64,000 nucleotides of DNA, taken from positions 130,803 to 194,802 of the forward strand of contig CALQZS010000001.1 in the NCBI GenBank assembly GCA_943349945.1. The letters run 5' to 3'. Every line of letters begins with the position of its first letter. The stretch's first letter is position 1. This document shows, one piece after another, positions 14,481-42,040 of the stretch. The stretch comes from Candidatus Nomurabacteria bacterium. GTDB lineage: Bacteria; Patescibacteriota; Minisyncoccia; Phycocordibacterales; SBAW01. The position numbers and the translations under genes were made by a program. The notes beneath the pieces were generated by a model, which saw nothing but the letters and a program-made list of their open reading frames with translations, did not search any database and had not been told where the DNA came from.

Positions 14481-15245
14481 TTATTTCCTCGGCAATGGGA
14501 TAAATATACTTGTTTTCCTTTTGTACTCTGCAAACTCAGGGTTCCCCTCCAGTTTCTTTTCAAGCATCGGAACGCCAGACACTTTCAAGATCAAAAAAGT
14601 TATAGTCATAGGCCCAACAATACCAAGCCAGGCGCCGGGTACAGAGAGAGCGATGAGCCACAGCCCCCACCACTGCACTACCTCGCCAAAATAATTTGGA
14701 TGACGAGTGTACGCCCACAACCCGCTTTGCATCAACTTTCCCTTGTTCTCTGGATTTTTAATAAACCGCGCAAGTTGTGCATCGCCCAAAGCTTCAAAAT
14801 AAAAACCAACAAGCCACACAGCTACGCCTAGAAAATCGAGCAGCACAAGACTCGGCCCAGCATTTTTGTTGATAAGCAGTACCGGCGAAACAATGAGGAA
14901 CAAAAACAGGCCTTGCAAAAGATACACTTGAAAATACGAACGGATATAAAACCACTTGCCCCATTCTTTCCTCCAAGCTAGATAGCGATAGTCCTCTGCT
15001 TTGCCTTTGTTGCGTCTGTGTATGTGCCACGCTAAACGCAAACCCCAAATACTTACCAACACTCCTACCAACATCCCTCGTATACCAGAATCACCGGAAA
15101 GAAAAAAGGATGCCCCTGTCATCAGTACAAACCCGAGCCCCCACGCCACATCGGCCACATCGTTTCTTTTCCTAATCAAAGAAACCACGAACCATAGGCT
15201 CATGTACACAAGCAGTATGGCGATAAGAGTTACAAAATAACTCAT
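14481..15245 (-). CDS. DUF1295 / steroid 5-alpha-reductase-like membrane protein
   Basis: Multi-TM with a C-terminal RHPNYFGE motif. Start taken at MSYFVTLIA. Confidence 0.7.
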   Translation of the reverse strand: MSYFVTLIAILLVYMSLWFVVSLIRKRNDVADVAWGLGFVLMTGASFFLSGDSGIRGMLVGVLVSIWGLRLAWHIHRRNKGKAEDYRYLAWRKEWGKWFYIRSYFQVYLLQGLFLFLIVSPVLLINKNAGPSLVLLDFLGVAVWLVGFYFEALGDAQLARFIKNPENKGKLMQSGLWAYTRHPNYFGEVVQWWGLWLIALSVPGAWLGIVGPMTITFLILKVSGVPMLEKKLEGNPEFAEYKRKTSIFIPLPRK

Positions 15246-15640
15246 AAACCGATCTTGGTTGCGATGAAGTAGGTTACCGCAGAAACAGACGCCGCGAGCA
15301 CTGCACCCCACACTAAGTCAACGATGGTTACAAGAAGCGGCCAATCTTTGGTGACGGCAAGGTTAGTAAGGTCGTACGTTGCATAACAAACCAAACCAAA
15401 TAGCGCACCGAACAAAAGTGCGTGCGTCCATGAATTCTTCTCTATGGCCGGCATAATTACAAAAACCACAAGACCGACAACAAACAAAAGATAAAAGATA
15501 ATAGCCGCCGTCCAGTTTACATCTGGCTTTAGGAGCGGACCGATTTGTTTAGCGTAAAAACCCTTTGCAACGAGTCCAAGCCACACCATGTCGATGGCAA
15601 AGAAAACAGGGAGTGCTATTGCATAGAGTTTTATGAACAT
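15242..15640 (-). CDS. DUF2177-like small membrane protein
   Basis: Four predicted TM helices, 132 aa. Confidence 0.55.
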   Translation of the reverse strand: MFIKLYAIALPVFFAIDMVWLGLVAKGFYAKQIGPLLKPDVNWTAAIIFYLLFVVGLVVFVIMPAIEKNSWTHALLFGALFGLVCYATYDLTNLAVTKDWPLLVTIVDLVWGAVLAASVSAVTYFIATKIGL

Positions 15641-15651
15641 AAAAGATAGGA

Positions 15652-16302
15652 TTAATTAATAATTTCCACCAACACTTCATTGCGATACATCCACGGTGGA
15701 GTCCATGGTGCGCTGTATCCAGCGTATGCAGTGCTTCCCTTTGTCGCCACTCCATCACGGGCAAGTGCCGAAGCTAATTTTTCTTGCATGTCTTTTACCC
15801 GCGTATCCGAGCGATACCCCGAGAATTGCAGTACTGCATATTTCTTGGTAGGGATCATCACGATTTTCACTCTCGGATCATTTGGTGTCGGTAATGTTTC
15901 AAGGGTGTACGAGCGGGGCATACCAAAAGATATTATTTGCGAGTCACCATCAGTCGTCGCTACTACCGGTGCAGTCATAGCAATATTTTCTGATGTTTTT
16001 TCGCCTCCTACTTTTTGCGCGATGACTGGAACGGTCATCGCTATACTTTCTTTTTTTGTATTTCCGCCAAAGATATACCCAGCAACAATTCTAAAACCAT
16101 TATTCATAGATTCTCCATAAGAACCCTTTACCGTAGTCTGCGCTACGATATGTGCCGGATATTCTCGTATTTCATATCCATCTTTTATCTCAATGACAGT
16201 ATAGTCAGCTTGCTCAACACGCGAACCAAAAAATCCTGAGATAGACCAAAGCACCACAATAACAAGCAAAGCGATAAGTATAGTGCTCATATTTTTATTC
16301 AT
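15652..16302 (-). CDS. SOUL/HBP heme-binding family protein
   Basis: YEIREYPAHIVA...NNGFRIVAGYIFGGN...IAMTAPV...WMYRNEVLVEI. Signal/TM at the N-terminus. Confidence 0.7.
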   Translation of the reverse strand: MNKNMSTILIALLVIVVLWSISGFFGSRVEQADYTVIEIKDGYEIREYPAHIVAQTTVKGSYGESMNNGFRIVAGYIFGGNTKKESIAMTVPVIAQKVGGEKTSENIAMTAPVVATTDGDSQIISFGMPRSYTLETLPTPNDPRVKIVMIPTKKYAVLQFSGYRSDTRVKDMQEKLASALARDGVATKGSTAYAGYSAPWTPPWMYRNEVLVEIIN

Positions 16303-16393
16303 ATAGCTTTAGTATATAATAGTATATACTAAACTATAATAATATTAGTTTAGTATATGCATTAACAATATTTAATCAATTTAAAATAAATAT
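16303..16393. promoter_or_regulatory. AT-rich divergent intergenic region with reiterated TAGTATATA motifs
   Basis: tagtatataa / tagtatatac / tagtttagtatatgc occur between divergently transcribed SOUL and fasciclin genes. Confidence 0.35.
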
Positions 16394-16795
16394 ATGCAAA
16401 ATATCGTAGAAACAGCTGTCGCAGCAGGATCATTTAAAACACTGGTCACTGCAGTGCAAGCGGCAGGATTAGTAGACACTCTATCTGGTGCAGGTCCCTT
16501 CACTGTATTTGCTCCAACTGATGAGGCTTTCGCCAAAATTCCAAAAGAGACTCTCGACGCAGTCCTTGCGGATAAAGCAAAGCTAACATCTATACTTACG
16601 TACCATGTGGTGGCAGGAAAAGTAATGGCTTCTGATGTAATGGGCCTGACTTCTGCAAAGACAGTACAAGGTGATGAAGTTAAAATAGAAACTGCAGATG
16701 GAGTTATGGTAAACGACGCCAAAGTAGTACAAACAGACATAGAATGCACAAACGGAGTAATCCATGTCATCGATTCAGTCTTGATGCCAAAATAA
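16394..16795 (+). CDS. fasciclin (FAS1) domain protein
   Basis: [31 protein letters not shown]...[13 protein letters not shown]. Confidence 0.8.
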
Positions 16796-16814
16796 ATACA
16801 TCCGAAATAAAAAT

Positions 16815-16846
16815 AAAAAACTCTAACTTTTGTTAGAGTTTTTTAT
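16815..16846. terminator. bidirectional intrinsic terminator between convergent genes
   Basis: aaaaaa ctctaac tttt gttagag tttttt. Confidence 0.75.
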
Positions 16847-16855
16847 TTTTATTGA

Positions 16856-17245
16856 TTAGGCGTCTATTTTTGCCGCAAGAATAAAATCATTTTGAGAGAG
16901 TCCGTTAATTGCATGGGTGGACAGCGTGAGCTCTACAAATTTGTAGTTTTTCAGATATATGTCCGGATGATGCCCCTCTGATTCAGCCAAAACGCCAACC
17001 TTATTTACAAAAACAAGAGCTTCATTGAAGTCCTTAAAACTATATCGCTTGGCGATACTTTTAGCATCAAGCGAAATATCCCAGCCGGGAATTTGCTTGC
17101 ATAATATATCTGCCTCTATCTTTGAAAAAGGAATGACACCACCATCGCATGCCATGCATTTTTGTTGAGTCAGTGGCGAGTTAGTTTTAGGAGTAGGGGC
17201 CTGACTCTGTATAGTTGTATGTTCCATATGCTTGTAGTATAGCAA
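16856..17245 (-). CDS. pterin-4a-carbinolamine dehydratase (PCD/DCoH)
   Basis: EGHHPD motif (VLAESEGHHPDIYLKNYKFVELTLSTHA). Confidence 0.8.
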   Translation of the reverse strand: MLYYKHMEHTTIQSQAPTPKTNSPLTQQKCMACDGGVIPFSKIEADILCKQIPGWDISLDAKSIAKRYSFKDFNEALVFVNKVGVLAESEGHHPDIYLKNYKFVELTLSTHAINGLSQNDFILAAKIDA

Positions 17246-17268
17246 AATTAAGAATGGCTACAAATTTT

Positions 17269-18939
17269 TTATTTCGTATCAATATGATTCCACGCAAAAC
17301 CCTTGTCTCCATACACTTTTTTACCTGGGTTTAAAATAGCAAGCGGGTCAAAAATATCTTTTGTCTTTTCAAAGAGACGTACGATCTCAGGGGTAAACAT
17401 CTGCGAAAGGTACGAGGTACGTAAAAGTCCGTCATTATGTTCTCCAGACATAGAACCTCCATACTGAAATACGAGAGTATAGACTTCATCCATGAGTGTA
17501 TGGAGAGTCTCAACTATTCCTTCTTTATGAATGTCAATAAGCGGAATAATATGAAAGTTTGCATCTCCCATATGTCCGGCCACAGTATAAATAAGATCAT
17601 ATTTCGAAAAAATAATTTCAAGTTTGGGAAGAAACTCCGGGAGATCTTTTGTGTGTACGACAATATCATCAATTGTGGGTGCCGTTCGATACCCTCGCAA
17701 CTTCTGGCGAAGCAGGTTGAAGCTTTCGCGCCTGAATGTCCAATACTTTTTTGCTTCTTGTTCCGAGTGCGTCAATGTAATAGGAAATCCGAATACCTTC
17801 ATCTCGTTATATGCTGACTGTACCTGCTCTGCAACTTCTTCTTCAGTATCCCCTGCAAATTCTGCCATGAGAATTATCTTTGGAACTCCGCCAGTGATTG
17901 CCATCCAAAACTCAGGCAAAAATTGGAACCCGAGCGTCAACATAGTACCCCCCATGCTTTTTGCAATTGAACCAAAGAATTTAATCGCTATTTTAAACGT
18001 ATGATCATCATAAGATTCGATGGTTTCAGGTGTATGTTTTAAAAGTCTTGGAATTATTTCTCCTAGTTGCGTTGTGGCTGGCAAAAACATAACGAGCATT
18101 CTGGAATGTTTTTTGGGGACAATTCCACTCAATGTCGCTTCAGTCACACAGGCAAGGGTTCCCTGACTGCCCACAACGAGCTTTGATAGGTCAAATACTC
18201 CTGATTCTTTATCGTAGACATTCCAAAGATAGTACCCTGAAGAATTTTTTGTTACTGTCGGTTTTGCTTGTTGCAGTACATCATAGTTGTCCTTTACAAG
18301 GGCAAATATCTCTCGATGAATGCGCCCGCTTTCAGTTTGTTCTTCGCATTTTGCGATAAGTTTCTCTGCATGAAGTGGTTCTAGAACATCTTCTTCTCCA
18401 TTTGCAAATACAACACGAAGCGAGCGAACATACTTTTCCGTCTTTCCATAGGTAAGTGTCTTTTCACCTCCTGAGTTATTAGAGACAATACCTCCAATCG
18501 CAGCCAAATCACGAGACGCCGGATAGCTTGGCAAAAGCCAGCCGTGCGCAAGAGTCTTTTTCTCAAAATCACTATAGTATACCCCCGGCTCTGTTATGGC
18601 TTCTGTGTCGGTGACAGAAAATACATGATTCATGTATCTCATTGTGTCTACGACGATGGATTCCGAAAGTGGGCCACCGGTCATACAGGTACCGGCGGCA
18701 CGCATGGTGAGGGATAACGGTACACCCTGATCTATATCTTTAGTTTTTTTTGCATGCACATAAGCAACAAGTTTTGCAATGTCTTCTTTACTTTTTGGGT
18801 AGACAACAATGCGGGGTTTTACATAAAAAAGGCTTGTGTCTCGCGCAGCTTTTTCTCGATCACTGTCTAAGATAGAAATATCTCCTTTGATTATTGTACG
18901 CAAATCACCAGCGACATCCGTATAAAAAATTTCATTCAT
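17269..18939 (-). CDS. FAD-linked oxidase (GlcD / D-lactate dehydrogenase-like)
   Basis: 556 aa. FAD-binding PCMH-type N-terminal domain (RAAGTCMTGGPL..., AAIGGIVSNNSGG) plus a C-terminal oxidase domain. Confidence 0.75.
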   Translation of the reverse strand: MNEIFYTDVAGDLRTIIKGDISILDSDREKAARDTSLFYVKPRIVVYPKSKEDIAKLVAYVHAKKTKDIDQGVPLSLTMRAAGTCMTGGPLSESIVVDTMRYMNHVFSVTDTEAITEPGVYYSDFEKKTLAHGWLLPSYPASRDLAAIGGIVSNNSGGEKTLTYGKTEKYVRSLRVVFANGEEDVLEPLHAEKLIAKCEEQTESGRIHREIFALVKDNYDVLQQAKPTVTKNSSGYYLWNVYDKESGVFDLSKLVVGSQGTLACVTEATLSGIVPKKHSRMLVMFLPATTQLGEIIPRLLKHTPETIESYDDHTFKIAIKFFGSIAKSMGGTMLTLGFQFLPEFWMAITGGVPKIILMAEFAGDTEEEVAEQVQSAYNEMKVFGFPITLTHSEQEAKKYWTFRRESFNLLRQKLRGYRTAPTIDDIVVHTKDLPEFLPKLEIIFSKYDLIYTVAGHMGDANFHIIPLIDIHKEGIVETLHTLMDEVYTLVFQYGGSMSGEHNDGLLRTSYLSQMFTPEIVRLFEKTKDIFDPLAILNPGKKVYGDKGFAWNHIDTK

Positions 18940-18961
18940 ACATTTATTATAACATTATCGG

Positions 18962-19445
18962 ACTCATTTTACTTAGCGTTTGCTTCGAGTTTTTCTTCGC
19001 TGTATATACCAGTACACATAGAGAGAAAGTAGAAGGATTATATTCGGAATAAATATGATTGGTTGACCCCAGGATATTCCATTGATATGGAAGTCTGAAA
19101 TCGGCCACAAAAAAGGCGTTGGGAAAAAGGCAAAATCGTGTGTAGGTATATCAACTAAAATATGAAGTGGCCACGCGAGCGTAAGCTTGGCAAAATGCTT
19201 TTTGCCAAGAATAACGCATAAACGACCAAGCTATGAGTAATACCATAGACGGTGAAGACGTACGGCGGAATCGTTTCTAAGCTTGGCCGACCCATTGCGC
19301 CACCAGAAACTAGATTTATTATAAAAAGAGGCGCGAACGCCAAGAGGTCTGGCCCTATACCAAAGAGAAATGCAGTCACATAATCCCGCCTGCGCATGCG
19401 ACCAAATGCAACACCTCCATATAATCCGTGAGAGATAATGTCCAT
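18962..19445 (-). pseudogene. YdjM/DUF457-like membrane-bound metal-dependent hydrolase, apparently frameshifted
   Basis: The ORF at 19155..19445 ends with ...RGHFIF*. The +2 frame immediately downstream reads DIPTHDFAFFPTPFLW...YWYIQRRKTRSKR* (contains a D..TH His motif) to a stop at 18962. Combined length of about 155 aa fits the family. Confidence 0.4.
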
Positions 19446-19473
19446 ACATTTATTATACTATTTGTATGTGAAA

Positions 19474-20934
19474 TTATTTTTTAGACAGATACTCCTTTGC
19501 AATTTTTAAATAATTTTCTTTTTTCTTTTTTTCCATCTTATCAAAAAGTCTCGGCATCATCGATAGTCGATGATTACTTGTGAAAAAGTCACGGTGACTA
19601 GCTATGAAATTCCAATACAGTGCAGTCCACTTCTCTTCCCAATCGCCACCAGTATAATCTGACATTTTTTTAATGTAATTGCTACCCGAGATATATGGTT
19701 TGGTAGCAAAAATACCACCATCAGCGAACTGACTCATCCCATATACATTTGGTACCATTACCCAATCATACGCATCAACATACATTGCCATAAACCATTG
19801 ATACACATAATCGGGATTAACCTGAGAAAGCAACATAAAGTTACCGATAACCATCAATCGTTCGATATGATGATTGTATCCATAGTGCAGAGCTTTCTTG
19901 ATAGCGCTGTCGACCGGAGCAATACCAGTATCTCCAGTCCAAAATCCTATTGGCAAGTTGCGGGAATGTTTCCAAAAATTCTTCGTGCGCATGACGGCAC
20001 CATCACACTCATAGGAAGCGCGCATAAACTCACGCCACCCAATGATCTGTCGTACAAAACCTTCGAGTGAATTTATAGGTATAGCGTGAGTATCTGCATA
20101 TACTATTGCACTATCGATTACCTGCCTTGGGTCGAGCAATCCAATATTTATGAGAGCTGACAATGTAGAATGAAAAAGCCGTACGCTTTTCGTAGAAAGC
20201 GCGTCCTCATACACACCAAAATCTGCAAAGCGGTCTTCTAAAAATACCTGCAAAAATTTTTTGGCATCCTTGTGTGTATATGGTAGCCAGCAGGCTATCT
20301 CTCCATATTTTTCAGCTTGTATTGTATCGAGCCACTTCTTCATTTTTGATACATCAAAATCATTTTCAAAAACAGTATCCTTGGGGAGAGTTGTATCTCG
20401 AGCAAGTTTTTTTCGATTGTCTGCATCAAAGCTCCACGCTCCCCATCTGGGCTTTCCATGTCCGTCCATCAAGATACCCAAGTCCACTCGAATTTTCTTG
20501 TAGAACATCGCCATATTTTTCTTTGAGCTTTTGTATCTTGCTATTGATTCCTCCTTTGGCAAAATAAAAAGTGGTGACTCATACCAAACCCGCTTTATCT
20601 TGGAAGCTGTTATAGCCCGCTCCAAATAGAAGTCAGTAGTATCGACAATATGAAGTTCTTGTATCCCTTCTTTTTTTAAATAATCAAAAATATCTTTCGT
20701 CTTCGGATACTGTTCAATCGTCAGGCATTTTACTTTGTACCCCTCTTTTTTCAAAAGCTCTGCATATGCGCCCATACTTAATTTGTGCAAAATTAGCTTT
20801 TGATAATGAATGGGGTTGTGCGACAGAATCAAGGGCTCTTCAATCAAAAAAATAATCCGTGCTTTTTGTATAGCCGGTGATTTTATAAAAAGTTGATGAG
20901 GATAGACCAATGTTGCTTCTTTCATAGTATTCAT
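19474..20934 (-). CDS. cryptochrome/photolyase-related protein (COG3046-like)
   Basis: 486 aa. N-terminal alpha/beta region plus a C-terminal FAD-binding-7-like region (GWREFMRASY..., W-rich). Family call by overall resemblance. Confidence 0.65.
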   Translation of the reverse strand: MNTMKEATLVYPHQLFIKSPAIQKARIIFLIEEPLILSHNPIHYQKLILHKLSMGAYAELLKKEGYKVKCLTIEQYPKTKDIFDYLKKEGIQELHIVDTTDFYLERAITASKIKRVWYESPLFILPKEESIARYKSSKKNMAMFYKKIRVDLGILMDGHGKPRWGAWSFDADNRKKLARDTTLPKDTVFENDFDVSKMKKWLDTIQAEKYGEIACWLPYTHKDAKKFLQVFLEDRFADFGVYEDALSTKSVRLFHSTLSALINIGLLDPRQVIDSAIVYADTHAIPINSLEGFVRQIIGWREFMRASYECDGAVMRTKNFWKHSRNLPIGFWTGDTGIAPVDSAIKKALHYGYNHHIERLMVIGNFMLLSQVNPDYVYQWFMAMYVDAYDWVMVPNVYGMSQFADGGIFATKPYISGSNYIKKMSDYTGGDWEEKWTALYWNFIASHRDFFTSNHRLSMMPRLFDKMEKKKKENYLKIAKEYLSKK

Positions 20935-20937
20935 CTA

Positions 20938-21204
20938 TCAGGTTGATAGTATTAAAATCAAAATAGCGAAGTATACGATCAGATAAAAACGATAGAAATT
21001 AATCACCCGCAACTCTGCACTCTTCGTGCGCTGATGAAAGCCAAAAAGCACTTTGATCTCCTCCCAAAAAACGGGCTTTACATTAATCCACCAGCTATCA
21101 GTTTGATAGACCATCTTCCTAAATCGACTGCGAAACAATCCCAAAGGAAAACTCCAGATAAAAAACGCAACGATGGCAATCGTGTGTATGGTTATAGTAT
21201 CCAT
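20938..21204 (-). CDS. small 2-TM membrane protein
   Basis: 88 aa, translationally coupled downstream of the photolyase-like gene. Confidence 0.4.
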   Translation of the reverse strand: MDTITIHTIAIVAFFIWSFPLGLFRSRFRKMVYQTDSWWINVKPVFWEEIKVLFGFHQRTKSAELRVINFYRFYLIVYFAILILILST

Positions 21205-21325
21205 TTATGCCTCTTCAGTCCTTACTTCTATTATAAACTTTATTCTCTCAAGAGCTACCATTCCCTCCCCCTCCTTTTTGCGAACCTCGACCTTCAGGGG
21301 CAAAAGATACTTTGGCCATAAATTT

Positions 21326-22225
21326 TTACTCCACCGGACAGGTGTTTTTGCCCATCGCGGCGTAGAACCCACACCAGCTAAATATTGCTTCAAAGAATGC
21401 AAGGCCGGAGAAGAAGATGAGGATGGGGCTCCAGGTGGTGGTGATGGCCCATAGGAGCAATGCAATGCCAATGGCGAGGCGGACGAGTCGGTCGGACTTG
21501 CCGATATTTTTAGCAACTCCACGCACAGAGTTTTTAGCAACCTTTTTCAAAATCGCGCGGTAGACGAAGCCCACGATGAACGCAAGAATATATATAATGA
21601 CAATCAGTCCCCACCCAAAGGGCGAGAGGATAAAGCCGATTGGCGATTCGTTAAAAAAATCCTTTTTAATCTGCGGGATGAGCGTGAGTGCGTTTAAGCC
21701 TTCTTTGCCGTCAAACTTCTCTATCTCACCGATGGCGAGCGAGTACTTGCTGTCGTTGTTGGGGCTTGTCACACGGATCTCGTAGATGCCTACATCAGCA
21801 CGCGCTTTATACTCTGGTCCTTGCCAGTAGGTGTCGTAGCCAAATGGTTCAAAAAACTGTTTCCATGCAAATGTCGCGCCATCGAGCACGGCGATTTGCT
21901 TGCCGTCTTTTAGTACCACAGCGGAGACATCTTTCTTTTGCCCTGCAATGTCTGGCACCAAGACTCCGACATACAGATTAAACGCTTGCTTCGCATCTAT
22001 AGTATATACATCCGGCTCGCCCATGAGCTTGCCATAATATGCTTTGGAAACTTCGGGGTCAGTAACTGATGTAAGTCTATCCTCTGTAATTCGAGGCTGA
22101 TGTGCGGAAGCCAAGCTCGGAGTCAACGTAAATATAGAGACAAACAACGCAAGCAGCGTGAGTGATAGTAGTTTGGAATTTATGTTATATCCGAAAACGT
22201 TCAAGATGCACCTAGTATACAGCAC
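21326..22225 (-). CDS. exported protein with C-terminal DUF2892-like (YgaP-like) membrane domain
   Basis: Signal peptide, then C-terminus ...LLWAITTTWSPILIFFSGLAFFEAIFSWCGFYAAMGKNTCP. Confidence 0.5.
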   Translation of the reverse strand: MLYTRCILNVFGYNINSKLLSLTLLALFVSIFTLTPSLASAHQPRITEDRLTSVTDPEVSKAYYGKLMGEPDVYTIDAKQAFNLYVGVLVPDIAGQKKDVSAVVLKDGKQIAVLDGATFAWKQFFEPFGYDTYWQGPEYKARADVGIYEIRVTSPNNDSKYSLAIGEIEKFDGKEGLNALTLIPQIKKDFFNESPIGFILSPFGWGLIVIIYILAFIVGFVYRAILKKVAKNSVRGVAKNIGKSDRLVRLAIGIALLLWAITTTWSPILIFFSGLAFFEAIFSWCGFYAAMGKNTCPVE

Positions 22226-22230
22226 CTAGT

Positions 22231-22599
22231 CTAGAAGTAAGGGATGAGTAAACTAAGTCCCTTCCCCATCAGAAAGCTGTATATCAGCAACCCAATGAAC
22301 GGTAGAGGCACCAGCCATAAAAACCATCTTGGATGGTCAGGTTTTTTTGAAAAAACCATGTACCAATTCAACGCAAATATAAGAGGTGTACAAATTGACA
22401 AGAGAGCACTTGTACCAAAACCGAGCAGTCCAAACACTTCCCCACTACTCCATACGAAAGAGTCGTCCTGCACAATAAACAAAAAGGCTACGCTCGACCA
22501 AACAACAGCTATTAGAAACACCTTTACTAAAAGCGCTTCGTAAATTCCAATAGCAGCCAAAACTATTTTTACAGGCGTGTTGATGGTGAATCTATGCAT
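22231..22599 (-). CDS. hypothetical membrane protein
   Basis: Start trimmed to MHRF because the upstream part of the ORF overlaps a tRNA gene. Confidence 0.45.
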   Translation of the reverse strand: MHRFTINTPVKIVLAAIGIYEALLVKVFLIAVVWSSVAFLFIVQDDSFVWSSGEVFGLLGFGTSALLSICTPLIFALNWYMVFSKKPDHPRWFLWLVPLPFIGLLIYSFLMGKGLSLLIPYF

Positions 22600-22625
22600 G
22601 TAGGTAATTATATACCCATAACCGT

Positions 22626-22715
22626 TGCGGAGAGAGCGAGATTCGAACTCGCGGGCCCAATTAAGGGCCGACAGTTTAGTAAACTGTTGATTTAAACCAC
22701 TCATCCATCTCTCCA
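22626..22715 (-). tRNA. type II (long variable arm) tRNA, Ser-like identity (G73), apparent anticodon ACU
   Basis: Minus-sense fold: GGAGAGA UG GAU gagugguuuaa AUC A ACAGU uuACUaa ACUGU cGGCCCuuaauuGGGCCc GCGAG uucgaau CUCGC UCUCUCC G. All stems are canonical. The 7-nt anticodon loop UUACUAA gives A34-C35-U36. Confidence 0.65.
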
Positions 22716-22926
22716 TATATTCGCACTGCTCAAATGGAGCTGCTCGGCGCAGATCGATGGAATCGTGGTCGGCACATGGTGCCGGCTTGAGAAGAAGCAG
22801 TTCTTCTCTTCGCCCATCTCATCCATCTCTCCTTGCCCTTGAGGATACTACAGTATATAGAGGAGCTCAATTAAAGCCTTTTTGAGCGTGTAAAGTAGCC
22901 CCTATTATGGTACTGTGGCGTGTATT

Positions 22927-23011
22927 GGAGACGTGTCAGAGTGGTCGAATGTGCCTCCTTGCTAAGGAGGTAGGGCGCAAGCCCTCGTGGGTTCGAATCC
23001 CACCGTCTCCG
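22927..23011 (+). tRNA. tRNA-Ser(GCU)
   Basis: GGAGACG...CCUCC uuGCUaa GGAGG, long variable arm GGGCgcaaGCCC, T-arm GUGGG uucgaau CCCAC, acceptor CGUCUCC, discriminator G. Confidence 0.9.
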
Positions 23012-23052
23012 CAAAGCTAAATTTTGATATATTCTCCTATCTAAATTTTGCT

Positions 23053-23167
23053 TATGTGTGAACGGGAGAGGGATTCGAAGGACGGAAGAAAAGCTCTGGG
23101 AGAGCTTTTCTGAGTCGGGGTCGCGAGATTTTTCAGCAGAAAAATACTTGTGACCGAATCCCACTGT
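23053..23167. repeat. tRNA 3'-end-like fragments
   Basis: GTGACCGAATCCCACTGTCCACA (23143..23167) resembles the tRNA-Ser(GCU) 3' end GTGGGTTCGAATCCCACCGTCTCCGCA. gggagagggattcgaaggacgg (23053..23078) resembles a tRNA T-arm/acceptor in reverse orientation. Confidence 0.35.
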
Positions 23168-23298
23168 CCACAAATACTACGCGGCGTAGAATTGAGTCGA
23201 AGCCGAATCGTTTTAATCGTCTCCGCTTAGTTTTTTGTAGTGTTCTACTGTAGAGCATTTTATGTGGTATAAACAAGCCATATCATTAATTTTTTAAT

Positions 23299-23931
23299 AT
23301 GTCTCGACAAACGATATTAATATTAGTCCTTATTGTTTTGGTGGTTGGCGTAAGCGGGTATTGGTATTTTAGTCACCAAAGCAAGGTTACCGACGTACCT
23401 ACAGAGGTGGTTGCAACGACAAATACTACCCATGTAGAAGAAGTAAAGGTGGAAAATAATCGAAAAAGTGCCGTAACGTCTAATGGTTTGGAATTTGACC
23501 CGGCTAAGGTACAGCCCGGGGAAAAATTCGGTGCGTTTACAGTTATTGCTTCGAGCGCTTATACGATTGGCGATGAACACTCTTACTCAGTAAGTTTCAA
23601 AGGACCTGTAAATATCCAGGGTGTATTAAACAATTTTGAGCCTAGTATGTGTGGTGCAGTACTGGAGATTTCTACATCAACTTCCGAAACCTTGCCTAGA
23701 GTGAGCGGTGAAAAGGTGGGGAGCATGAATGTATACCTTGACCTAGATGGTTTGCCAGAGGCAGAGCGTGTTACTTATACGAGCGCCGGTTTTACAACCC
23801 CTTCCGGGCAACTACTCCAAGAGGGTGATGTGTTAGAAGTAACTGTTGATACGTTTTTGGCTTCGCACCAAGGGAAAGATTGTAGCGGCAAGAGGATACA
23901 GGTCACCTCATTTAAGAAGCTTTCTATCTAA
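23299..23931 (+). CDS. hypothetical membrane-anchored/exported protein
   Basis: N-terminal TM ILILVLIVLVVGVSGYWYF. No recognised family. Confidence 0.5.
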   Translation: MSRQTILILVLIVLVVGVSGYWYFSHQSKVTDVPTEVVATTNTTHVEEVKVENNRKSAVTSNGLEFDPAKVQPGEKFGAFTVIASSAYTIGDEHSYSVSFKGPVNIQGVLNNFEPSMCGAVLEISTSTSETLPRVSGEKVGSMNVYLDLDGLPEAERVTYTSAGFTTPSGQLLQEGDVLEVTVDTFLASHQGKDCSGKRIQVTSFKKLSI

Positions 23932-24075
23932 CTGCGCAGCAAAATAGAAAACTTCGCCTCAGTACATATTTGTGACCGAGTCTCACTCTCTCTCCGCCAT
24001 ACATATACAACTTTTTTAAGAGTTGATATCCGCATTGACAATATCAACTAAACAGTATAAACTGTTGACATTCAT

Positions 24076-25257
24076 ATGAGCAACATCAATAGACCAAAAA
24101 TAGGTCGCTACGTAGCCCAAAAAGAGGGGTTCAAATCCTTCACCCCTTATGACTTTCCACCCAAGGAAGGCTTTGTTATTAGTCCTAAATTGTATAAAAA
24201 ACTTGAGGATGCGATTCGACTAGTCGGCAAGCTTGACGGTATCACTCGCCTGCTACCCGACAAAGACTTCTTTCTTCTTATGTTCATCAAAAAGGACGCC
24301 GCCTATTCAAGTCAAATAGAAGGCACCAAAGCTACCCTACAGGATGCCGTGGCGGCACCAGTTACAGAAGAAAAATCACGTCGACATCCTGATGTAGATG
24401 ACATAGTCCATTATGTTGAGGCCGTAAACTATGGCATCAAACGAAGCGAGACACTCCCTATTTCTCTGCGGTTAGTACGAGAGATACACGAGAAGTTAAT
24501 GACAGGTGCACGCGCCACACAACATGCCTATCCTGGCGAATTTAGACGTTCCCAAAATTGGATTGGGGGTAAAATTCCTCAAGATGCCTCCTTTGTGCCA
24601 CCTGCGCCGCACGATATGGACAAATCACTGGATGATTTGGAAAAATTCATCCATGCAAAAGATGATTACCCCTCACTTATAAAAGCGGGTCTTTTGCATG
24701 CCCAATTCGAAACAATTCACCCATTTACAGACGGCAACGGACGTACAGGACGCATGCTTATTGCTATGTACATGCACCACACAAAACTTCTTGAATTACC
24801 TATATTGTATCTATCTAGTTACTTCAAAAAGTATCAAAAACTCTACTACCAAAAGCTTCAGAATTACCATGAGGAAGATTCCGATATAGAAGGTTGGCTA
24901 GAGTTCTTTCTTGAAGGTGTTGCTGAAATTGCTGAATCTTCAATCGAAACCTGTACTAATATCACAGCCCTTCGAGACCGAGACTTTGCGAAAATGCAAA
25001 AACTTGGCAAACAGTCTGCTGAATCAACACTCGAAGTGGTGCGCAAACTCTTCAGCCAACCAATAGTCGGGGTTGCAGAAATAATAAATTGGACTGGGTT
25101 TAGCCCACAAGGGGCGTACAACATGATTGAGCGACTTAAAGCTCTAGGAATTCTAGAGCCTCTTGGTGATGCAGAATATGGACAAAAATACATCTATGCA
25201 GACTACTACAGGCTCTTTGATGATACTTTTAATACAACAAAAGTAAGCAAAAAATAG
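24076..25257 (+). CDS. Fic family protein (AMPylase-type, with auto-inhibitory motif and C-terminal wHTH-like region)
   Basis: Fic motif HPFTDGNGRTGR. Upstream S/TxxxEG-type inhibitory motif (YSSQIEGT). 393 aa. Confidence 0.85.
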   Translation: MSNINRPKIGRYVAQKEGFKSFTPYDFPPKEGFVISPKLYKKLEDAIRLVGKLDGITRLLPDKDFFLLMFIKKDAAYSSQIEGTKATLQDAVAAPVTEEKSRRHPDVDDIVHYVEAVNYGIKRSETLPISLRLVREIHEKLMTGARATQHAYPGEFRRSQNWIGGKIPQDASFVPPAPHDMDKSLDDLEKFIHAKDDYPSLIKAGLLHAQFETIHPFTDGNGRTGRMLIAMYMHHTKLLELPILYLSSYFKKYQKLYYQKLQNYHEEDSDIEGWLEFFLEGVAEIAESSIETCTNITALRDRDFAKMQKLGKQSAESTLEVVRKLFSQPIVGVAEIINWTGFSPQGAYNMIERLKALGILEPLGDAEYGQKYIYADYYRLFDDTFNTTKVSKK

Positions 25258-25258
25258 T

Positions 25259-25828
25259 ATGAAAAAACTCATCCTCGCTTCTACATCACCCCGACGCAAG
25301 GAGGTGCTCGAGAAAACAGGCCTATCGTTTGAGATTGTGCCAAGCGACTACGAAGAAGACATGACCCTCGACATGCCGCCCGAGGAGTTGGCCGAGTATC
25401 TTTCGGCTGGCAAGGCGCGGGCCGTTGCGGCCAAAAACCCAGGAGCCGTAGTTATTGCGGCCGACACCTTTGTAGTGCACGAGCATCATCGCCTGGGCAA
25501 GCCACACACCAACGAGCGCGCAAAAGAGATGCTAGAGATGCTCAGCGGCAAAGCACACTATATAGTAACCGGTGTGACTATTGTCGCTGGCGACCAAGTG
25601 TGCTCCTTCCACGAAAAGACTTCGGTGCACATGGCAGAGTTGTCGGAAGCGTTAATAGAGCAATATATAGCCACCGGCGAGCCACTCGACAAAGCTGGCG
25701 CCTATGCGCTGCAAGAGCTGGGCGCTATGCTTATAGAAAAAACAGAGGGTGACTTTTTTAATGCCATGGGCCTGCCGCTCCGCCGGCTTGTGCACGAGCT
25801 CCGGGCCTTTGGGGTGGAGGTTTTGTAA
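25259..25828 (+). CDS. maf: Maf-like nucleoside triphosphate pyrophosphatase
   Basis: MKKLILASTSPRRKEVL...AADT... Confidence 0.85.
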   Translation: MKKLILASTSPRRKEVLEKTGLSFEIVPSDYEEDMTLDMPPEELAEYLSAGKARAVAAKNPGAVVIAADTFVVHEHHRLGKPHTNERAKEMLEMLSGKAHYIVTGVTIVAGDQVCSFHEKTSVHMAELSEALIEQYIATGEPLDKAGAYALQELGAMLIEKTEGDFFNAMGLPLRRLVHELRAFGVEVL

Positions 25829-36378: not shown

Positions 36379-36531
36379 CAAGAAGAAAGGGATTTCCCCT
36401 TACAGGGGCAGTACAGGTCTCGTATCGCACTTCATAAACTTTATGCGATATACTCGACCTTTTCAATCCCTGCACATACAGTGCATAGGCACTGTATTCG
36501 CGCCAATACTCGCTATGCTCGTTCTATTGTG

Positions 36532-36603
36532 TGGGCGCGGCAGGGATTGAACCTGCGACCAGTCGTGTATAAGACGACCGCTCTACCACTGAGCTACGCG
36601 CCC
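36532..36603 (-). tRNA. tRNA-Ile(UAU)
   Basis: Minus sense GGGCGCG UA GCUC aguggua GAGC G GUCGU cuUAUac ACGAC uggUC GCAGG uucaauc CCUGC CGCGCCC A. Anticodon loop CUUAUAC gives UAU. Confidence 0.8.
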
Positions 36604-41652: not shown

Positions 41653-42028
41653 GGGGATGCCAGGCCTAGACAATGAAGACGCCTGTTGAATGCGCGCAGT
41701 AGAAGTCTGGACCTTCTTAAAAATCCGGAAACAATAACTGCAAAAAACAGTGTTTCGCCGTATTTCGCGGCGAACGACTTCCAGTTCGCGTTCGCGCGAG
41801 CGTAAGTCGCATCTACCCTTCCTCTCTCTTGCGGGTTGGGATAGGTGTTATATAGCAAGAGTATAGTTGCAAGAGCCGCTCTGACTTGCATCCGAACATA
41901 AGAGCTGCAGGAAGTTATGATTTCGTTTGCTTTGCCCATAACAGCCTAAAGAAACAACAAGCGAACTACACTACGTAGAAGCTTCAGCAGCACTTCATTG
42001 CACGGCGGTTCAATTCCGCCCATCTCCA
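41653..42028 (+). ncRNA. ssrA: tmRNA (SsrA)
   Basis: 5' GGGGAUG pairs with 3' CAUCUCC (G3:U70 Ala identity, A73). T-arm GGCGG uucaauu CCGCC. Internal tag ORF GCG GCG AAC GAC UUC CAG UUC GCG UUC GCG CGA GCG UAA gives (A)ANDFQFAFARA*. Located directly downstream of smpB. Confidence 0.8.
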
Positions 42029-42040
42029 CATAAAAATAAA

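Follow-up and report, generated by a model that had tools for sequence, protein, structure and literature searches.

A serine-type tRNA gene with the anticodon ACU lies on the minus strand, at positions 22627-22714, of the stretch of DNA analysed here (64 kb, hereafter the window). This tRNA-Ser(ACU) is very probably a functional, conserved tRNA gene, and the reading that we prefer, with a probability of roughly 0.6, is that of a genuine elongator, which would decode AGU by means of an unmodified A34. The gene contradicts a rule that is stated as universal: split-box ANN tRNAs other than that of Ile are described as "universally missing", A34 in the Ser-Arg box likewise (Ehrlich et al., PMC8007984), and the other fifteen ANN anticodons are described as absent across bacteria (bioRxiv 10.64898/2026.05.15.725136). 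As the original prediction had remarked, bacteria very rarely have A34 in any tRNA but tRNA-Arg(ACG). No description of a tRNA-Ser(ACU) from CPR (Patescibacteria, ultra-small bacteria) was found in the full-text literature, the coverage of which is incomplete, so that a prior notice elsewhere is possible; as far as could be found, the family is previously undescribed.

In the whole window, ARAGORN called four RNA genes (two tRNA-Ser, one tRNA-Ile and a tmRNA) and assigned the anticodon act to the gene at 22627-22714. Rfam model RF00005 agrees over its full length (model positions 1-71): tRNA-Ser(ACU) scores 55.8 bits (E = 2.6e-9 over the window) and the neighbouring tRNA-Ser(GCU) 54.5 bits, both far above the gathering threshold of 29 bits. 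The canonical fold and the ACU anticodon that had been proposed for this gene are thus confirmed by two methods. The acceptor stem has 7 bp (GGAGAGA/UCUCUCC), the D stem 3 bp, and the anticodon and T stems 5 bp each; the variable arm of 16 nt contains a 5-bp stem, as in a type-2 tRNA-Ser, the discriminator is G73, and no CCA is encoded. The anticodon loop, UUACUAA, occupies 22676-22682 on the minus strand, both by reading of the sequence and in the Infernal alignment, and consists of U32-U33-A34-C35-U36-A37-A38. A34 is the complement of the plus-strand t at 22680, followed by C35 at 22679 and U36 at 22678; the original prediction had placed A34 at 22679, one base off. In the minimum free energy structure of RNAfold, U32-A38 and U33-A37 are closed, leaving a loop of only three nucleotides. 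As the loop of the GCU tRNA is closed in the same way, this does not represent an alternative anticodon.

The A itself is not an assembly artefact, since the 88-nt gene is base-identical in three assemblies (ENA ERZ27280263, ENA ERZ27280265 and Logan ERR5863109) that represent the same organism, are independent and come from different samples; the Fic protein of the window served as the query with which contigs encoding it were found.

The exact 21-mer CAACAGTTTACTAAACTGTCG, corresponding to the ACU anticodon arm, is present in at least 120 species genomes of GTDB, scanned with one genome per species. The anticodon is fixed by the design of this pattern, which shapes both the invariance of the arm and the species count; the latter is a lower bound that covers one arm sequence. 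All of the matching loci hold a Ser-type tRNA with ACU: 116 were called by ARAGORN, and four are cut by contig ends. By record label, nearly all of the genomes are Patescibacteria/Paceibacteria, including Paceibacteria/Parcubacteria, Nomura-, Kaiser-, Adler-, Lloyd- and Taylorbacteria, three Magasanikbacteria, and Minisyncoccia, on contigs of up to 1.17 Mb. Four matches are labelled otherwise. Mis-binning is the likely cause, as at least two of their tRNAs (L157 and L165) are near-identical to those of Magasanikbacteria MAGs. The nearest relative of the window among the matches listed is an Adlerbacteria MAG, with 78% nucleotide identity over one gene. Judged from this distribution, the family appears to be specific to the Patescibacteria lineage, mainly Paceibacteria/Parcubacteria with some Magasanikbacteria.

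Genome and metagenome matches, pooled, yielded 129 unique ACU tRNAs, of which 122 were aligned. Their RNAalifold consensus is a cloverleaf with 99-100% pairing per helix; a single pair of the variable arm is weaker. Between two and five types of Watson-Crick pair are found at acceptor pairs 4-7, D-stem pair 11:24, the variable-arm stem and the T-stem pairs; these compensatory substitutions indicate purifying selection on the structure. G73 is found in 122 of the 129 unique tRNAs, and G1-C72, G2-C71 and A3-U70 are invariant in the aligned ones. Together, G73 and these three pairs form the bacterial Ser identity set, which the family therefore carries. CCA is encoded by 36 of the 116 genes.

A second scan, of metagenomes, used the D-arm and anticodon stem of the window tRNA with all seven loop bases left free. 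As only the stem of the window was covered, its invariance follows from the design of the query, and all counts are minimum values. The anticodon is ACU in 80 of the 103 matches, with the loop UUACUAA in 75 and CUACUAA in five. The others comprise 20 tRNAs with the Ser anticodon UGA (CUUGAAA), two with AGA (CUAGAAA), another A34 tRNA for Ser, and one with an aberrant loop (UCGCUAA). The normal GCU loop, UUGCUAA, was encountered in none of the 103 matches. A34 is fixed in the tRNA-Ser(ACU) family.

The 20 tRNA-Ser(UGA) (e.g., L197 and L246) agree exactly with the ACU family in their D-arm and anticodon stem, and in some of them the acceptor and T arms are near-identical as well. This common arm and stem hints that the ACU lineage may have arisen from a UGA-type Ser tRNA, or may exchange sequence with it. 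The two AGA tRNAs, at L177 1922-2011 and L240 4261-4350 on two metagenome contigs, also have this D-arm and stem in common with the ACU family. An A34 tRNA of a different split box, a tRNA-His(AUG), was observed at L239 5708-5783 on a metagenome contig, within an array of 13 tRNAs.

The partner tRNA-Ser(GCU) is located at 22927-23012 on the plus strand (ARAGORN and Rfam), in divergent orientation, with the anticodon stem CCUCC/GGAGG. It shares with tRNA-Ser(ACU) the type-2 architecture with its long variable arm, G73, the pairs G1-C72, G2-C71 and A3-U70, the 3-bp D stem, the codon box and, except for position 34, the loop UU-N-CUAA. The two differ in having A34 or G34 and in their expected reading (AGU only for the ACU tRNA), and they are separate paralogues: in the window, they are about 60% identical, with differences in every stem, and inside one genome the median identity is 63% (75 genomes). 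Between genomes, the ACU tRNAs have a median identity of 83%, or 79% without the searched 21-mer, and the GCU partners of 80%. A tRNA-Ser(GCU) is found within the same 8 kb locus in 75 of the 116 genome loci, mostly 10-350 nt away (typically ~100 nt); the orientation is divergent in 44 of these pairs, and 29 are on the same strand. Since the divergence between genomes is similar for both and the identity within a genome is only 63%, the ACU and GCU tRNAs are old, co-inherited paralogues. Vertical inheritance of tRNA-Ser(ACU), which co-exists with and usually adjoins a separate tRNA-Ser(GCU), is best able to explain these sequence comparisons.

The original prediction had also considered that the gene might be a copy of the neighbouring tRNA-Ser(GCU) which had mutated recently or become a pseudogene. 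Such an origin, or a sequencing or assembly error at position 34, could be suspected because the gene adjoins tRNA-Ser(GCU) and the locus contains tRNA fragments as well as DNA that varies between strains. However, the low identity to the neighbour, the identical gene in independent assemblies, the spread over at least 120 species with compensatory substitutions and the absence of the normal G34 variant among the 103 loop-free matches refute it, and we regard this explanation as wrong, with a negligible residual probability.

The decoding of the AGN box was derived from blastp alignments between the ORFs of ACU-bearing loci (pairs of 40-85% identity), in which AGN-box subject codons were left out to prevent circularity. 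AGU and AGC have an equal, Ser-like profile: they align with UCN-Ser in 20-21% of the cases, followed by Thr, Asn, Ala and Gly. For AGA, the aligned residues are CGN-Arg in 43% and Lys in 25% of the cases, and Ser in less than 2%. A reassignment of AGA, or of the AGN box, to Ser was therefore rejected. The ACU-bearing genomes use the standard code, with AGY = Ser and AGR = Arg. Per 1000 codons, the ACU-bearing loci contain 13.9 AGU, 7.7 AGC and 10.6 AGA, the last being their commonest Arg codon. Their GC content ranges from 0.28 to 0.55 (median 0.38), and the share of AGU falls with rising GC. In the window (GC ~0.52), AGC is preferred by about 2:1 (13.9 per 1000, with 7.3 for AGU).

In the decoding mechanism that we propose, tRNA-Ser(ACU) would be charged by SerRS, which would read the long variable arm, G73 and the acceptor pairs, not the anticodon. 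Aminoacylation by SerRS is the probable outcome as judged from the identity elements. Bacterial SerRS does not read the anticodon; the change from G34 to A34 would therefore cost nothing in aminoacylation. In other split boxes, by contrast, position 34 is reported to be a synthetase identity element for several amino acids. The second requirement concerns deamination. CPR appear to be without tRNA-Arg(ACG), with GCG used instead (Shulgina and Eddy, PMC8629427), which implies that no TadA is present to turn A34 into inosine. In the related loci, two Arg(GCG) genes were detected, along with a single Arg(ACG) in a 22-tRNA array of doubtful origin. With an E. coli TadA query, tblastn detected no TadA homologue in the 64-kb window, and in ~1.5 Mb of related loci it gave one weak match below cut-off (L184), which was not repeated. 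On the basis of the literature statement on CPR, A34 would stay unmodified where the TadA inosine system is missing. It would then form a Watson-Crick pair with AGU, leaving AGA and AGG to tRNA-Arg(UCU), with tRNA-Ser(GCU) covering AGC. The task of tRNA-Ser(ACU) would be to decode AGU alone, which predominates among the AGY codons in most of these AT-rich genomes. This suggests that only a lineage in which both constraints, deamination and recognition of position 34 by the synthetase, are missing would tolerate an AGU decoder and, if AT-rich, perhaps favour it.

An analogue is offered by an orthogonal tRNA whose ACU is unmodified: it decoded AGU at 9.4%, and no decoding of AGC or AGA was detectable (PMC11066159). 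By this analogy, the original prediction that a genuine ACU tRNA would read AGU only is kept as the most likely decoding. Two observations count against this reading: tRNA-Ser(GCU) is already able to read AGU, which makes the selective benefit hypothetical, and the genome of the window prefers AGC.

Deamination of A34, by TadA-like or other enzymes, would instead result in a Ser(ICU) tRNA reading AGU, AGC and AGA, with AGA being ambiguous or recoded. The loop is compatible with this to some extent: U33-A34-C35 matches the core of the natural TadA target UACG, although position 36 is U, not G. In E. coli, which contains TadA, engineered split-box ANN tRNAs are converted to I34 and tend to be harmful (bioRxiv 10.64898/2026.05.15.725136). 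Moreover, a gene with a TadA-like cytidine/adenosine deaminase fold adjoins the GCU/ACU pair in one metagenome locus (L184 5929-6498, minus strand). With 73.5 bits against the NCBIfam TadA model, this gene is nevertheless far below the cut-off of 150, and it is the sole such match in the ~1.5 Mb of loci. Furthermore, the ACG/inosine system is reportedly missing from CPR (PMC8629427), and tRNA-Arg(UCU) genes are present in related loci. A further objection is AGA itself: an inosine form would misread this abundant codon, the commonest for Arg, which aligns with Arg and Lys. The misreading of AGA by a deaminated form, raised in the original prediction, is thus real in principle and unlikely here, and we consider inosine at position 34 quite improbable.

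It is also conceivable, though rather unlikely, that tRNA-Ser(ACU) is charged with Ser and has mainly a non-decoding role, as a donor for cell-wall or lipid aminoacylation, or that a novel modification of A34 alters its reading. Dedicated tRNAs for such purposes are known from some Gram-positive bacteria. Redundancy with tRNA-Ser(GCU) in decoding would fit such a role, as would the strict conservation as a separate paralogue and the lack of any other split-box ANN tRNA accompanying it: in the related loci, none was found except the one His(AUG) in its tRNA array. On the other hand, the fixed ACU, U33, A37, the 7-nt loop of standard form and the normal T arm are the features required for decoding, and no conserved transferase neighbour was noticed at the loci, which were inspected unsystematically. 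We retain the AGU elongator as the preferred reading.

Gene-encoded A34 is known from other bacterial tRNAs. In tRNA-Arg(ACG), as in the extra A34 tRNAs of Leuconostocaceae (Leu-AAG and Thr-AGU), it serves a family box and is tied to deamination by TadA, whereas I34 in the ACU anticodon would misread AGA, which is still Arg here. A closer parallel is the tRNA-Thr(AGU) of Mycoplasma, which has an unmodified A34 (as cited in PMC11066159). It is likewise a natural bacterial A34 tRNA of a reduced-genome lineage with simplified wobble-modification machinery. This Thr tRNA, however, serves a four-codon family box, in which loose reading by A34 is harmless, and tRNA-Ser(ACU) belongs to the split Ser/Arg box. 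Among engineered systems, the M. jannaschii orthogonal tRNA(ACU) shows that an unmodified ACU decodes AGU specifically (PMC11066159), and ANN tRNAs on native E. coli backbones are translationally active (bioRxiv 10.64898/2026.05.15.725136). These are laboratory constructs, in contrast to tRNA-Ser(ACU), a natural family kept across many species. Allo-tRNAs and tRNA-Sec also combine a SerRS-type identity with a non-standard anticodon. They have an 8/4, 9/3 or 8/5 acceptor/T-stem organization and read non-Ser codons, whereas tRNA-Ser(ACU) is a 7/5 cloverleaf for a Ser codon; with its 7-bp acceptor and 5-bp T stem, it was not assigned to these groups.

Whether Patescibacteria indeed maintain a natural, translationally active split-box tRNA with an unmodified A34 is, on these sequence data, close to an even bet. 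If they do, the rule that no living organism has split-box ANN tRNAs would meet its first exception. The rule would then seem to depend on two constraints that can be removed, deamination by TadA/ADAT and recognition of position 34 by the synthetase, both of which would be lifted only for Ser in a lineage without TadA. More radically, a new modification or a partial deamination of A34 may lead to a regulated ambiguity of AGA. For the question of why split-box ANN tRNAs are absent elsewhere, tRNA-Ser(ACU) represents a direct natural test case: it predicts that the presence of a deaminase and anticodon recognition by the synthetase are the constraints that matter. It would also provide a natural backbone for the study of decoding by unmodified A34, and it gives annotation pipelines a reason to keep Ser(ACT) calls in CPR, instead of dropping them as pseudogenes or errors.

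Both Ser tRNAs are situated near the right edge of a low-GC stretch (~14500-25500; GC 0.39-0.46, compared with 0.52-0.56 elsewhere), which encodes a pterin dehydratase, an FAD oxidase, a photolyase-related protein, a YgaP-like membrane protein and the Fic protein. Two fragments resembling tRNA 3' ends are present on the plus strand to the right of the GCU tRNA. The first, at 23144-23175, resembles the T-arm and acceptor strand of the GCU tRNA; the second, at 23966-23997, ends in TCTCTCTCCGC and resembles the 3' acceptor strand of the ACU tRNA. In a strain variant (L003), unrelated DNA is found 3' (left) of tRNA-Ser(ACU), containing an att-like tRNA 3' fragment at ~95-130. All three fragments have the common prefix TGTGACCGA(A/G)TC. 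Such 3'-end-like fragments downstream of the Ser tRNAs suggest repeated integration and excision of elements at these genes. When the far end of the low-GC stretch was searched for an att-like partner, no fragment came up besides these two on the right side of the GCU tRNA in the window. The recombination-prone nature of the locus, as originally predicted, is supported by the tRNA-end fragments, by a 15-nt repeat at 22818-22832, and by the variant flank of L003 and its lack of a 118-nt segment.

This setting raises the possibility that a mobile element or phage carries tRNA-Ser(ACU) as cargo and distributes it horizontally among CPR, in which case it would not be a core host gene. Its place at the edge of the low-GC stretch (14.5-25.5 kb), the variation of the DNA 3' of the tRNA between strains and one viral contig with a Ser(ACU) tRNA are in favor of this. 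Yet the pairing with a host-type tRNA-Ser(GCU) is kept across 75 genomes, the divergence of the ACU tRNA matches that of its GCU partner, and the flanks can be variable because tRNA genes are integration sites. In addition, when viral contigs were scanned with N at position 34, A34 was encountered in only one of 46 matches to the anticodon arm; the arm with G or U34 is common in the Ser(GCU) and Arg(UCU) tRNAs of phage arrays. With this single ACU case, a phage origin was set aside, and transport as mobile cargo is very unlikely. The one case, at L027 2900-2989 on an IMG/VR contig classed as viral, is a Ser-type tRNA with the anticodon ACU and U as discriminator.

Between a likely promoter and tRNA-Ser(ACU), a structured element of 118 nt is present at 22715-22832 on the minus strand. 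It starts, at 22818-22832, with an exact copy of nucleotides 1-15 of the tRNA, and in L003 exactly this segment between the repeats is missing. At least six other species have homologues of ~100-118 nt directly upstream of their ACU tRNAs (L084 7189-7304, L156 5877-5992, L131 6571-6688, L215 6424-6540, L249 491-594 and L109 1000-1101), and each starts with a copy of the 5' end of its own tRNA. For the seven copies, RNAalifold predicted 30 pairs, 15 of them with compensatory changes. With a covariance model, the element was recovered from about 10 of the 223 loci, always upstream of an ACU tRNA, and no second copy was found in the window. No Rfam family matched it, and a hammerhead-like reading, made by eye, was discarded as the core motifs do not fit. 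The element may represent a small insertion that duplicated a 15-nt target (D-loop region), or a structured or processed leader. A sigma-70 consensus scan gave sites no more frequently than in shuffled sequence.

The two remaining RNA genes called by ARAGORN in the window are the tmRNA, at 41653-42029, and tRNA-Ile(tat), at 36531-36603 on the minus strand. The latter, with the anticodon UAU, implies decoding of AUA without lysidine; this anticodon occurs 18 times in the related Patescibacteria loci.
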